Source: Escherichia phage CLB_P2
Length of the DNA: 64,000 nucleotides
Strand: one strand, 5' to 3'
Sequence record: OL770107
Shown: positions 16,334 through 19,949 of the stretch, piece by piece
How positions within the stretch are numbered: the first letter of the stretch is position 1
How the letters are laid out: every line of letters starts with the position of its first letter
Translations under genes and position numbers: made by a program
The notes under the pieces: generated by a model
Told to the model about the DNA's origin: nothing
The model's database searches: none
The model's input: the letters and a program-made list of their open reading frames with translations, nothing else

Positions 16334-16788
16334 TGAAAACCGAAGATTTTGCTCAAGGTCTATACGTTGCTGCAAAATTCTCTGAATTGACTTTAGATGC
16401 GCTGGAAAATCTTCAGCGCACTTTAAAGGTTCCTAATCCAGTTCCTCGTGAAAAATTCCATTCTACAATCTGCTATTCAAGAGTCAACGTTCCATACACT
16501 GTTGCATCCGGAAGTTTCGAAGTTGCTTCGACAGGACATCTTGAAGTGTGGAAACATGGTGATTCTCCCGTCTTGGTACTGGTTCTCGATTCAGAGTATC
16601 TTAAATGCCGCCATCAGTATGCTCGTACCTTAGGTGCTACGCACGATTTCGATGATTACACCCCTCATATCACATTGTCTTATAATGTAGGACCTCTTAC
16701 CTTTAGTGGAGATGTCCAGATTCCTGTCGTTTTAGATAGAGAATATAAAGAACCCTTGAAGCTCGACTGGGCCGAGGATTTAAAGTGA
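16333..16788 (+). CDS. 57B: 57B / Acb1-like 2H phosphoesterase (anti-CBASS candidate)
   Basis: 151 aa (T4 57B/Acb1 152 aa); two H-x-T motifs (HSTI, HITL) typical of the 2H phosphoesterase fold; synteny after 57A. Confidence 0.6.
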
Positions 16789-16994
16789 AATCATACAAAG
16801 AATTCTTAACAGAAGCAATGGAGTCAGCCTCTTCGGTGGCAATAGAGGTTTCTTGTACTCCTGAAGAATTTAAAGAAAGCCTGAAAGGTATAAATTGGCT
16901 TTCAGGAGAGTTATCTAATGGGGTTGCCTACTTCTTTGGCCCGCAATCAGATATAGATAGCTGGGTCTCTGAAAATTCTTCATGGCTAAAATAA
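16785..16994 (+). CDS. small internal-protein-like protein with capsid-targeting-like leader
   Basis: GTG start overlapping the 57B stop codon; N-terminus (M)[10 protein letters not shown] resembles the T4 internal-protein leader MKTYQEFIAEA. Confidence 0.4.
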
Positions 16995-17003
16995 TTTAAA
17001 AAT

Positions 17004-17045
17004 GTTTTACAAAGGGCCTTAGTGATGATACTATAGGCCTATCAA
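17004..17045 (+). promoter_or_regulatory. early promoter / stem-loop cassette (PeSL-like)
   Basis: GTTTTAC -35-like element, about 18-nt spacer, TACTAT -10; inverted repeat flanks the -10. Confidence 0.45.
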
Positions 17046-17072
17046 AAACAAACTAACCAAATGGAAATCAAA

Positions 17073-17351
17073 ATGAAAACTTATCAAGAATTTAGTAAAT
17101 CTCAAAAAGTGGCTCCTATCAATGAAGCCAGTGTTATGAGTGAAGTTATAGCCCTAAACAAAGGCCGTGAAGGTAAACCGGTTATCGGTCTTAATGGTGA
17201 TGAACTTAAAGGTACTGTTTATCTGGGCGACGGTTACCATGCTAAAAAAGACGGTGGGAGCATTGTTATTTCCCCGGCTCAAGAATCTTCTGTAATGAAA
17301 ACCGTTTACATCGCCACCAAGCACTTTGATATTTTGAAAAAAGCACTTTAA
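17073..17351 (+). CDS. ipI: internal head protein, ipI-locus type
   Basis: Starts MKTYQEF (T4 internal-protein capsid-targeting leader); 92 aa; located between 57B and the tRNA cluster as ipI is in T4. Confidence 0.6.
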   Translation: MKTYQEFSKSQKVAPINEASVMSEVIALNKGREGKPVIGLNGDELKGTVYLGDGYHAKKDGGSIVISPAQESSVMKTVYIATKHFDILKKAL

Positions 17352-17356
17352 AGTTA

Positions 17357-17396
17357 TTTACAACGGGCTCTAGTGATGATACTATAGCCCTATCAA
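17357..17396 (+). promoter_or_regulatory. early promoter / stem-loop cassette (PeSL-like)
   Basis: TTTACA -35, GATACTAT -10, inverted repeat gggct/agccc around the -10; conserved leader GAGTGATTGGAGAATAAAATG. Confidence 0.5.
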
Positions 17397-17421
17397 AACA
17401 AATGAGTGATTGGAGAATAAA

Positions 17422-17607
17422 ATGAAACGTTGTGAATTAATTAGAAATGTTACTGCACTGGCCGCCGTTACTGCTTTTGGCTTTAGTATGTTTGCAGGAT
17501 TCATGTTGGATTTGCTTACAACTTCCGAGAATACAATCTCTTTAGTAGTGGCATTCTTAATTGGTTCAATCTCTTTTGTTATGGATAAAATCTCTAAAGG
17601 TGAATAA
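17422..17607 (+). CDS. small membrane protein
   Basis: ATG after conserved leader GGAGAATAAA; two hydrophobic segments. Confidence 0.4.
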   Translation: MKRCELIRNVTALAAVTAFGFSMFAGFMLDLLTTSENTISLVVAFLIGSISFVMDKISKGE

Positions 17608-18008
17608 TGAACGTTGAATATTATGTATATGCGGATTACGAAAATAATCCGTCTAAAGATGAAGATAATCGTTTAGGTGTAGATGCTTTCGATTCCCCTG
17701 CTGCGGCATGGCAATGGGTTGAAAGTACTGATATTCCTTACCGTTATATTGAAGTGGTAGACCATGCAGGAAACAAGTATCCTAAGGAAGCATATGTTCC
17801 TTCCGGAAAGGTAAATTTCCTTTTGTTCGCAGGTGATAATTATTATCCACGTGGTGGGTATACCGATTTAATCGCTAAAGCATTCTCTGAAGATGAACTG
17901 CGCGATATCATTAAAGAAAATGAGAATAAACCTCTTTATGGTTTCGATCGTTTTGACTGGTGGCAGATTGTTAATGCCAATACCCACACTATTGTAGACG
18001 AGGGTTAA
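17607..18008 (+). CDS. hypothetical protein
   Basis: 133 aa ORF, ATGA overlap with upstream gene; no recognisable motif. Confidence 0.45.
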   Translation: MNVEYYVYADYENNPSKDEDNRLGVDAFDSPAAAWQWVESTDIPYRYIEVVDHAGNKYPKEAYVPSGKVNFLLFAGDNYYPRGGYTDLIAKAFSEDELRDIIKENENKPLYGFDRFDWWQIVNANTHTIVDEG

Positions 18009-18299
18009 ATGTTATACGTTAAGGTTACTAATCCAGAGAATGGCTATAAATCCGATCAGGTTGCTGCTGAGCTGTTGATTCGAAATTACGGCAAAGATGC
18101 TGTGCTTAATGTTCAACAGGTTAATATTGGCCGTAGTTCAAGCGATGTTAAACTCAAAGTTAACGGCCAACGCTATAATTCTGTTAACTTTACTTTTTAT
18201 ACTGCAACTGAAAACGGACTGGTCGAATACGACATCTTTAAAAATCCTTTGAAGATTGCTTCTATTAAACTTGATTATATTAATATGTGGCCGCAATGA
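18009..18299 (+). CDS. hypothetical protein
   Basis: 96 aa ORF starting 1 nt after the upstream stop. Confidence 0.45.
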   Translation: MLYVKVTNPENGYKSDQVAAELLIRNYGKDAVLNVQQVNIGRSSSDVKLKVNGQRYNSVNFTFYTATENGLVEYDIFKNPLKIASIKLDYINMWPQ

Positions 18300-18772: not shown

Positions 18773-18857
18773 GAATTATGTGATATTATTACTCTATCAT
18801 TAATACCCTCTATTACCAAAGGTTCTTCCCTCAAAGAGCCTTTCATAATAGAATTAA

Positions 18858-18931
18858 GGCCCTGTAGCTGGACGGTCAAGCGAGCGACTCATAATCGCTG
18901 GATGGTGGTTCGATTCCACCCAGGGCCACCA
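18858..18931 (+). tRNA. tRNA with CAT anticodon (Met, or Ile if lysidine-modified)
   Basis: 74 nt cloverleaf: 7-bp acceptor stem ggccctg/cagggcc, anticodon loop cTCATAa, T-arm ggtgg-ttcgatt-ccacc, encoded CCA. Confidence 0.75.
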
Positions 18932-18935
18932 ATTT

Positions 18936-19010
18936 GGATGTGTAGCTCAGCGGTAGAGCAGTTGACTGTTAATCAATTGGTCCATGGTTCGAATCCATGC
19001 ATGTCCGCCA
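18936..19010 (+). tRNA. tRNA-Asn (GTT)
   Basis: 75 nt: acceptor stem with two G-U pairs, anticodon loop cTGTTaa, T-arm catgg-ttcgaat-ccatg, encoded CCA. Confidence 0.7.
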
Positions 19011-19014
19011 AATA

Positions 19015-19090
19015 CGAGGCATAGCTCAGAAGGAAGAGCAAGGACCTTCTAAGTCCTGGGTCGTAGGTTCGATCCCTACTGTCTCGACCA
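19015..19090 (+). tRNA. tRNA-Arg (TCT)
   Basis: 76 nt: acceptor cgaggca/tgtctcg (one G-U), anticodon stem aggac/gtcct with loop cTTCTaa, T-arm gtagg-ttcgatc-cctac, CCA. Confidence 0.75.
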
Positions 19091-19257
19091 AACAAGAAAC
19101 CGGGTCGCTACCGGTAAGTCGTCGGACTGAAGTTCCCTGAATAAGACCCGACTTTAAGGCGTACATGAGTTCCTCTTAAAGTCCCTTATCTCACAGCTGA
19201 AACGGCGCACCGAACACTTGCCTAGCAGGTGGAACCCCGACAAGGTTACCCTAGGTT
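19091..19257 (+). ncRNA. candidate small stable RNA downstream of the tRNA cluster
   Basis: About 170 nt non-coding stretch with several local hairpins between the last tRNA and a strong terminator; no canonical T-loop; T4 encodes stable RNAs of unknown function in its tRNA region. Confidence 0.3.
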
Positions 19258-19288
19258 AAAGGCCCTTCCGAAAGGTTGGGCCTTTTTT
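19258..19288 (+). terminator. rho-independent terminator
   Basis: Stem ggccc/gggcc followed by TTTTTT. Confidence 0.6.
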
Positions 19289-19289
19289 G

Positions 19290-19297
19290 TATAAATA
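19290..19297 (+). promoter_or_regulatory. late promoter (TATAAATA)
   Basis: TATAAATA 29 nt upstream of the 19326 ATG. Confidence 0.5.
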
Positions 19298-19325
19298 GAT
19301 AAGTTAATTAACACAGGAAACAATA

Positions 19326-19949
19326 ATGAAAACTTACAATGAATTTTTGAACGAAAGCGTTCTGACTGAAGCCAGCGTGCGCATGACTAAAGATATGTGG
19401 CAAGCTGCTTATGATAAAATTTCCGGGACTAAAACCACTACCGAGTTCTTTAAAAACGTTTATGATATGTATGGTTTTGATACTAGTAACCAGAAAGAAT
19501 ATTACAAAGCTTCCAAAGCTTTTAAAGATATCGTAGCCGGTGGCGCTACTAAGCCCGCTAAACCAGCTAAAGCTCCTGTTGCTAAACCTGCAGCCCCAAC
19601 CAAAGTTGCACCACCTAAACCTGCTGCAGCGCCTAAAGCAGCGCCTGTAAAAGAAGCTCCTAAACCTAAAATCAAGTTCGACACCAGCACTATTGTTAAA
19701 AAATATAACCAACTGGCCTCTTTGGTTTCTGAAATCGAATCCGAAACTAAACATCTTGTTCGTGAATTCAACACTCTTCGTAATGGTCAACACATTAACA
19801 ACCTAGATACCCCGGACCTTTATCGTCTCTATCTGACGGTTGAAGGCCTTAAGTACACCCAGCCTATGCGCGAAGAAATTGATAACAAACTTCGTCAAGC
19901 ACGCCGACTGGCTGGTGACGCAGCTCAGTTCGAAAAGACCCGTAAATAA
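19326..19949 (+). CDS. internal-protein-like protein with capsid-targeting leader and Ala/Pro/Lys-rich linker
   Basis: N-terminus MKTYNEFLNE resembles the internal-protein leader; central PAKPAKAPVAKPAAPTKVAPPKPAAAPKAAP low-complexity basic segment; own late promoter. Confidence 0.55.
   Translation: MKTYNEFLNESVLTEASVRMTKDMWQAAYDKISGTKTTTEFFKNVYDMYGFDTSNQKEYYKASKAFKDIVAGGATKPAKPAKAPVAKPAAPTKVAPPKPAAAPKAAPVKEAPKPKIKFDTSTIVKKYNQLASLVSEIESETKHLVREFNTLRNGQHINNLDTPDLYRLYLTVEGLKYTQPMREEIDNKLRQARRLAGDAAQFEKTRK

Follow-up and report, generated by a model that had tools for sequence, protein, structure and literature searches.

We analyzed a 64,000-nucleotide stretch of the genome of Escherichia phage CLB_P2 (in the following, the window), in which three open reading frames (ORFs) begin with the type of leader peptide known from the internal proteins (IPs) of phage T4. 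CLB_P2 is a Dhakavirus; the 3.8 kb at positions 16300–20100 of the window are 100% identical to its public genome record OZ035781.1 and ∼95% identical to JS98, IME281, and other dhakaviruses. The genes are arranged in the reversed order of T4, namely 2, 3, 1, 57A, 57B, the ipI locus, trna.4/.3/.2, the tRNAs, e.8–e.1, e, denV, and vs.8. The three ORFs, which we term ORF-A, ORF-B, and ORF-C, and the gene 57B preceding them are located as follows.

16333–16788, + strand: 57B, the Acb1 anti-CBASS phosphodiesterase (Pfam PF23474 Acb1, 197.8 bits; syntenic with T4 57B)
16785–16994, + strand: ORF-A, leader-bearing protein of 69 amino acids (GTG start in a GTGA overlap with the 57B stop codon; matches PHROG 23867 over 69/69 residues)
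17073–17351, + strand: ORF-B, IPI orthologue of 92 amino acids (Pfam IPI_T4 PF11634; PDB 2JUB; PHROG 4363, "internal virion protein")
19326–19949, + strand: ORF-C, leader-bearing basic protein of 207 amino acids (PHROG 2280; family alignment; AlphaFold2 model; synteny)

ORF-A and ORF-B fall into the ipI locus, one of the two recognized IP loci (57B–trna.4 and the e/denV region; the wording "two Ip loci" is that of Silas et al. 2025, PMC12373910), and ORF-C lies outside both.

A six-frame scan of the whole window found only three ORFs that begin with x-K-[ST]-Y-x-E-F, all on the + strand, at 16785 (GTG), 17073, and 19326. The shorter motif K[ST]Y.EF matched four times in the six frames, compared with a mean of 0.04 in 100 dinucleotide-preserving shuffles, which corresponds to an enrichment of ∼100-fold. 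One of the four, on the − strand at 63124, does not lie at a start codon and runs antisense to a gene. Scan and shuffles thus bear out a preliminary description of this DNA, which had named three ORFs with a T4-type capsid-targeting leader.

The capsid-targeting sequence is the sole common part of the otherwise highly diverse set of internal proteins of T-even phages (PMC3012670, citing Repoila 1994). According to mutagenesis in T4, its residues 4 and 7 serve targeting and residues 8 and 10 processing, and the prohead protease gp21 cuts after L/I-x-E (PMC9026906). The targeting determinants, an aromatic residue at position 4 and Phe-7, are present as Tyr-4 and Phe-7 in ORF-A, ORF-B, and ORF-C. 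Comparison of the N termini with gp21 sites also located an L/I-x-E motif, with Glu and not Asp at the cut, inside the first 10–19 residues of all three proteins. To our knowledge, all Tevenvirinae encode gp21; gene 21 itself lies outside the window.

ORF-A starts with a GTG codon that has a Shine–Dalgarno sequence (GAGGA) 6 nucleotides upstream, and through the GTGA overlap it is predicted to be translationally coupled to 57B. Its leader contains Tyr-4, Phe-7, Leu-8, and Glu-10. Cleavage at the predicted site L8-T-E10↓A would release a mature form, Ala-11 to Lys-69, of 6.4 kDa with an isoelectric point (pI) of 4.1. Because of its GTG start, its length of only 69 residues, and its missing annotation in the RefSeq records of JS98 and IME08, ORF-A could be taken for a chance open frame that overlaps 57B. 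This explanation is practically refuted because ORF-A is conserved: homologues with 53–98% identity are found in dhakaviruses, EcS1 (Kagamiyamavirus), Gravdalen (Winklervirus), and CF1 and Merlin (Moonvirus), always directly 3′ of 57B. In IME08, IME281, CF1, EcS1, and Gravdalen the homologue starts with ATG; in CLB_P2 and JS98 the start is GTG, within the GTGA overlap. The family leader is kept as MK[ST][YF]x[ED]F[LIV]xE↓AME. Phe-7, Leu-8, Glu-10, Ala-11, Met-12, and Glu-13 are invariant in five aligned phage homologues (IME08, IME281, CF1, EcS1, and Gravdalen), and position 8 is L, I, or V across metagenome relatives (V or I in three of them). Together with a PHROG family of its own, a confident fold model, and the good Shine–Dalgarno sequence, this conservation marks ORF-A as a real gene, predicted to encode a small acidic protein.

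The AlphaFold2 model of ORF-A (predicted local distance difference test score (pLDDT) 83) was compared with viral models by Foldseek (BFVD). It matched the Merlin homologue and also Ip6 of phage VR7 (E = 1.8e-3, probability 1.00, template modeling score 0.70, 21% identity), a match to which the leader helix adds. The mature part of ORF-A aligned with Ip6 at a marginal BLASTP E of 0.015 in a five-sequence set, with a common F-x-GP...I..W stretch. A sequence search of the PDB returned only noise for ORF-A. As 57B is Acb1 and ORF-B is IPI, ORF-A is placed between two known anti-defense genes, and 57B, ORF-A, and IPI form a small anti-defense cluster. In RefSeq records of relatives, 57B is annotated as "RNA ligase", although the CLB_P2 protein matches Acb1 in Pfam.

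For ORF-B, we set the start at 17073 (N terminus MKTYQEFSKSQ) instead of at the upstream ATG at 17061 given in the ORF list, because a GGAAA-type Shine–Dalgarno sequence precedes it, as it precedes T4 ipI and ipIII. Over the full length, ORF-B and T4 IPI share 56% identity. It matches Pfam IPI_T4 with 92.7 bits (cut-off 25) from residues 19 to 92, covering profile positions 1–75 of 76. The match to the nuclear magnetic resonance structure of IPI* (PDB 2JUB; E = 8.6e-23) begins at residue 20, one residue past the predicted cut. The leader of T4 IPI reads MKTFKEFTSTTTPVSTITE↓ATLT and that of ORF-B MKTYQEFSKSQKVAPINE↓ASVM; Tyr-4, Phe-7, and I16-N-E18 of ORF-B correspond to Phe-4, Phe-7, and I17-T-E19 of T4 IPI. 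The lack of an L/I-x-E motif at residues 8–10 of ORF-B thus agrees with the usual arrangement in IPI, which has only one cut, at I-x-E↓A. The predicted cut INE↓A coincides with the N terminus of IPI* and would give a mature form Ala-19 to Leu-92 that begins with ASVMSEVIALNK.

ORF-B resembles T4 IPI also in its locus (57B–trna.4), in its length class, and in the early-promoter and hairpin cassette upstream of the gene. It had been listed at the ipI position among the leader variants, but it does not form a new variant class: it is orthologous to IPI and shares the long leader layout of the T4 protein. By analogy with T4 IPI, ORF-B most likely blocks a type IV restriction enzyme of the GmrSD type. 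However, 44% of its residues differ from T4 IPI, so that the cognate GmrSD subtype may be another one. The ORF-B variant is rare, with five phage records at ≥95% identity and every other match below 60%. The annotated "Ip9" of IME08 was considered as a counterpart of ORF-B and rejected, since it is a different protein.

ORF-C, which begins with MKTYNEFLNE, is found downstream of the tRNA cluster, in the following surroundings.

18858–19090, + strand: tRNA-Met, tRNA-Asn, and tRNA-Arg (ARAGORN; Rfam)
19091–19215 (approximate), + strand: homologue of T4 rnaD, the species 2 stable RNA (alignment to T4 rnaD)
about 19257–19285, + strand: intrinsic terminator hairpin ending the tRNA/stable-RNA unit (aaaggcccttccgaaaggttgggcctttttt; kept upstream of ORF-C homologues)
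19290–19297, + strand: T4-type late promoter of ORF-C (exact TATAAATA; 28 nucleotides before the ATG, directly after the terminator)
19952–19980, + strand: terminator-like hairpin after ORF-C (terminator scan; sequence)

The late promoter that had been described for this ORF after the tRNA terminator was thus recovered, and an rnaD-like RNA precedes the terminator too. This RNA lies directly 3′ of tRNA-Arg and is followed by ∼40 nucleotides more before the terminator; in an Rfam search, it matched no family. Terminator and TATAAATA (at −35 to −43) are kept in JS98, IME08, IME281, HX01 (Mosigvirus), and PG7 (Karamvirus), that is, in the three genera checked. PG7 has kept the promoter despite a protein identity of only ∼35%. 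The conserved TATAAATA in front of ORF-C homologues points to late expression.

ORF-C consists of the leader (residues 1–15), a helical N-domain (residues ∼20–72), an Ala/Pro/Lys linker (residues 73–116), and a helical C-domain (residues 117–207). AlphaFold2 modeled residues 20–72 with a pLDDT of ∼86 and residues 117–207 with ∼75; the linker in between is predicted to be disordered. The leader contains Tyr-4, Phe-7, Leu-8, and Glu-10 and two cut sites, L8-N-E10↓S and L13-T-E15↓A, with Ser-11 and/or Ala-16 (ASVR...) as predicted mature N termini. Functional clues were sparse. Pfam returned only a COMP coiled-coil below threshold (14.1 bits; cut-off 23.9), the PDB sequence search only low-complexity or linker matches (EB1 and secretins, E of 0.009 or worse), and Foldseek against the PDB nothing with E < 1. 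NCBIfam had no match for ORF-A, ORF-B, or ORF-C.

By tblastn, homologues of ORF-C were detected in 143 phage records, where the product is invariably labeled hypothetical. When 1.8 billion representative proteins were searched with a profile, only 14 representatives of the family came up, and all members that could be traced to a genome are from T4-type phages. The homologue follows the tRNA cluster and precedes e.8 or e.6 in 7/7 genera examined (Dhakavirus, Mosigvirus HX01, Karamvirus PG7, Marfavirus, Jiaodavirus, Tegunavirus fHe-Yen9-01, and Kagamiyamavirus). T4 has no ORF-C homologue in the syntenic 14 kb. The family leader is kept as M-x-x-[YF]-x-[ED]-[FI]-[LIV]-x-E, usually with a second [LIV]-x-E↓[AS], and Glu-15 and Ala-16 are invariant in an alignment of eight family members. 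In contrast, the bodies are built from exchangeable modules. In P0023 and the Jiaodavirus proteins, the N-domain and linker are retained next to another C-domain, and in P0025 the family C-domain is combined with a different N-domain. Such exchanges (P0023, P0025, and P0026; L013 2495–3070; L014 11202–11786) replace the N- or C-domain independently, with leader and Ala/Pro/Lys linker kept. The metagenomic homologue P0020 was called 60 residues too long; its conserved leader starts at the internal Met-61.

The closest comparison for ORF-C is with the basic internal proteins IPIII and IPII of T4, which inhibit GmrSD-ECOR17 and GmrSD-ECOR21, respectively; IPIII is needed on ECOR17 (PMC9391042). 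ORF-C likewise has a 10-residue MKTYxEF[LI]xE leader. Its mature form (192 residues, 21.5 kDa, pI 9.8, net charge +14) is close to IPIII* (183 residues, 20.4 kDa, pI 9.65, net charge +10). ORF-C differs from IPIII and IPII in its locus, after the tRNA cluster and before e.8, and in its two helical domains joined by an Ala/Pro/Lys linker. When ORF-A and ORF-C were aligned with IPII and IPIII (BLASTP and tblastn), the alignments covered only the first 11–31 residues, and no homology of the mature regions was detected. A replacement of ipIII by ORF-C was considered and rejected, as JS98 has both ipIII and an ORF-C homologue.

The basic character of ORF-C would also fit a packaged, histone-like protein with an architectural role in charge neutralization, DNA condensation, or ejection instead of anti-defense. 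The linker has a net charge of +9 over 44 residues, and lysines of internal proteins touch DNA phosphates in T4 heads (PMC3012670). Furthermore, the family is conserved and syntenic in many genera, unlike the highly strain-specific IPs. However, its folded N- and C-domains are swapped between lineages, as is typical of arms-race proteins, and the basic T4 proteins IPII and IPIII proved to be specific enzyme inhibitors. Moreover, the gene appears dispensable, as it is absent from VR5 and phiR1-RT, the close relatives of phages that carry it (e.g. fHe-Yen9-01 in the case of phiR1-RT). We therefore regard an architectural role as unlikely.

In the second IP locus, the genes e and denV are direct neighbors in CLB_P2, as the preliminary description had stated.

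28234–28722, + strand: e, lysozyme (162-amino acid ORF, T4 lysozyme-like; "soluble lysozyme" in the identical junction of dhabil)
28723–28782, + strand: e–denV spacer of 60 nucleotides with a single chimeric early promoter (JS98 has ipIII and orf114 there)
28783–29199, + strand: denV, endonuclease V (138-amino acid ORF; annotations of relatives)

A tblastn search with T4 IPII and IPIII over the 64 kb matched only the leaders of ORF-A, ORF-B, and ORF-C, and no IPII or IPIII body was found. JS98, the type dhakavirus, has the order e, ipIII (86% identical to T4 IPIII), orf114, denV, orf112, and vs.8, and ipIII, orf114, and orf112 are all leader-bearing. The left half of the CLB_P2 spacer is identical to what follows e in JS98 as far as the −35 region ("aaaagcagtttacatctcc"), and its right half is identical to what precedes denV in JS98, starting with the −10 region ("ggtaggcatgatactatagacctatcaact..."). 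The spacer is thus an exact chimera of two JS98 early-promoter cassettes (L017 3885–3970 and 5007–5062). Judged by its sequence, it is the footprint of a recombination between two similar cassettes. Either ipIII and orf114 were lost here or the junction marks the point at which both were inserted in JS98. Genes e and denV are joined directly in no more than seven phage records (CLB_P2, dhabil, dhaeg, Ec2-ASingh, two records of Bp7, and 04086).

Cassettes of this kind, each combining an early-type promoter with a hairpin, also occur in the ipI locus and before e.8.

16988–17047, + strand: early-type promoter and hairpin cassette (PeSL-like) before ORF-B (TTTACA-17-TACTAT with upstream TG; repeat family D1)
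17339–17398, + strand: second cassette copy, after ORF-B (repeat family D1; promoter scan)
19991–20050, + strand: third cassette copy, before e.8 (repeat family D1, 65% identity; promoter scan)

The three D1 copies share 65–100% identity. The two that flank ORF-B, 60 nucleotides each, are 82% identical and 351 nucleotides apart. They resemble the PeSL cassettes, to which modular shuffling in the T4-type phages RB49 and phi1 has been attributed (Arbiol et al. 2010, PMC2839356): ORF-B is flanked by similar 60-nucleotide repeats of a sigma-70-type promoter and a hairpin, and one such repeat forms the e–denV junction where JS98 has extra genes. PeSLs were described for ORFans of RB49 and phi1, whereas the CLB_P2 cassettes are known from their sequence footprint and not from a mini-circle or a recombination event.

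The leader-bearing genes vary among relatives. The ipI locus of JS98 contains ORF-A and an unannotated leader ORF of 97 residues, that of IME08 and IME281 contains ORF-A, ip8, and ip9, and that of VR5 contains ip8 and ip9 without ORF-A. In VR7, five consecutive leader ORFs lie between 57B and trna.4 (L018 7897–9472), only some of which are annotated as internal proteins. The repertoire of CLB_P2, which had been described as divergent, is not unusual for the group, since JS98, IME08, IME281, and VR7 carry other alternative sets. Two annotation issues were observed in these records. The JS98 RefSeq entry misses two leader ORFs (L001 2985–3194 and 3274–3567), which are the ORF-A homologue and the 97-residue ORF (MKTYQEFIKESTDLY...) at the IPI position, and VR7 156c is probably annotated from an upstream start, as its leader begins at an internal Met.

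Apart from the leader-bearing genes, the window contains five tandem paralogous small ORFs at 22390–23634, which encode proteins of 65–96 amino acids. Their C termini are of the type W-[VFY]-[STP]-S-S-x-x-C (...WVSSSAMC, WVSSSSEC, WVSSSYEC, WFTSSMSC, and WYPSSC).

With respect to packaging, we searched the proteome of purified virions of ValerieMcCarty04 (Jiaodavirus; supplement of PMC13119998) by six peptide strings, motifs, and accession numbers; the analysis pipeline behind these data is noisy. In the part of the supplement covered by these searches, two leader-bearing IPs of the e locus were present with 26 and 66 spectra. A gp67-like protein (MKTFKEFVKLNE↓EMVAG...) was represented by a semi-tryptic N terminus right after LNE. 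Packaging and cleavage directed by the leader are thus not confined to T4. The supplement also lists 57B/Acb1 (as "RNA ligase") with 17–18 spectra, although the spectra inspected had poor BLAST E-values. The virion proteome of phiR1-RT was considered as a packaging test for ORF-C and set aside as irrelevant, because phiR1-RT has no ORF-C gene.

Several points weigh against a packaged and injected role of all three proteins. The distant ORF-C relative of ValerieMcCarty04, VMC04_131 (MKFKDFLTEEELFEAAPGRMTK...), shares leader, N-domain, and linker with ORF-C and has a different C-domain. It had no peptide in the portion of the virion data searched, in which its neighbors are listed; this is a weak negative. 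The leader ORF next to 57B in ValerieMcCarty04 gave only a spurious match in the same data. Both results lower the confidence that every leader ORF reaches the virion in detectable amounts, and ORF-A and ORF-C are credible candidates for packaging. ORF-C is located outside the recognized loci, the fold searches for ORF-A and ORF-C gave no functional clue, and the promoter of ORF-B is of the early and not the late type, yet T4 ipI, ipII, and ipIII likewise have early-type promoters. Finally, Ip1, Ip2, and Ip3 each inhibit one distinct GmrSD enzyme with strict subtype specificity, but ten further ip genes (ip4–10 tested) had no detectable GmrSD target (Silas et al. 2025, PMC12373910). An anti-GmrSD role can therefore not be assumed.

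The missing peptides of VMC04_131, in a proteome that did detect other IPs, and the position of ORF-C outside the known loci would fit a different scenario, in which ORF-C and possibly ORF-A carry the leader without being injected effectors. Such a protein could be a late product that goes into the prohead core and there shares the fate of gp67 and gp68, degradation and expulsion, or it could stay unpackaged, with the leader DNA serving as a recombination linker. For the latter, the first ∼37 nucleotides (Shine–Dalgarno sequence and leader codons) indeed form a DNA repeat family (D2) among the cassettes. However, the key leader residues and the second cut site of ORF-C are kept down to ∼30–35% identity and through domain replacement, a pattern that speaks for selection acting on the peptide and not on DNA homology. 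Likewise, the late promoter has been retained. Unlike in multiply cleaved core proteins, the L/I-x-E sites of ORF-C are confined to the N-terminal leader. We therefore consider a leader without an injected effector rather unlikely.

Taken together, ORF-A, ORF-B, and ORF-C probably represent the internal head protein set of CLB_P2, which would be cleaved, packaged, and injected, and which would be one of many combinations generated by promoter-cassette recombination. The N-terminal capsid-targeting sequence of each protein would bind the prohead scaffolding core. Subsequently, gp21 would cut after L/I-x-E to expose Ala-11 in ORF-A, Ala-19 in ORF-B, and Ser-11 and/or Ala-16 in ORF-C. The mature proteins would remain inside the head together with the DNA and accompany it into the cell, and the lysine-rich linker of ORF-C could ride on the DNA. 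The set may have arisen by recombination between the repeated early-promoter cassettes at the IP loci, which would explain why nothing lies between e and denV.

The three ORFs had also been proposed as candidate injected anti-defense factors. The leader and cleavage motifs and the GmrSD data on Ip1, Ip2, and Ip3 support this proposal, and for ORF-A and ORF-C we infer packaging, cleavage, injection, and anti-defense activity from sequence features. Most plausibly, both proteins are members of unnamed internal-protein families that would act as early anti-defense factors. ORF-A and ORF-C can be compared with the polymorphic T-even proteins Ip4–Ip10 and further ones (Repoila et al. 1994, cited in PMC3012670 and PMC12373910); what they have in common with other IPs is limited to the leader. 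ORF-A lies in the ipI hotspot and its model resembles VR7 Ip6, but it is conserved and fixed beside 57B and thus not cassette-like. No database record of either family bears an Ip name, all being "hypothetical protein"; an earlier naming in the older literature is possible.

The repertoire of CLB_P2 is ordinary variation within a known system of swappable injected proteins and not a new kind of system, and the concept of polymorphic internal proteins with a role against type IV restriction is already established. Possible novelty is limited to two points, the unnamed status of ORF-A and ORF-C as members of this system and the location of ORF-C at a third locus. Some novelty attaches solely to the ORF-C family, on account of its conserved late promoter, double cut site, domain swapping, and position outside the named loci. 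We tentatively raise the possibility, which we hold to be less probable than not, that the family marks a third, so far unrecognized internal-protein locus that follows the tRNA cluster in no fewer than seven Tevenvirinae-type genera and is absent from T4. It would then supply a modular injected protein with a double-cut leader, swappable helical N- and C-domains, and a lysine-rich linker riding on the DNA, whose domains would be exchanged to match host defenses, possibly beyond GmrSD.

Injected internal proteins are the first countermeasure of the phage to host immunity, and those T4 IPs that were tested each disarm a specific type IV restriction enzyme. For a therapeutic-type coliphage such as CLB_P2, the list of leader proteins, including the lack of ipIII, orf114, and orf112, helps to predict its host range among wild E. 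coli. Short, conserved candidates for panels of GmrSD and other defense systems are available in ORF-A and ORF-C. The ORF-C family, if its assignment is true, would extend the IP loci beyond the two defined in T4.

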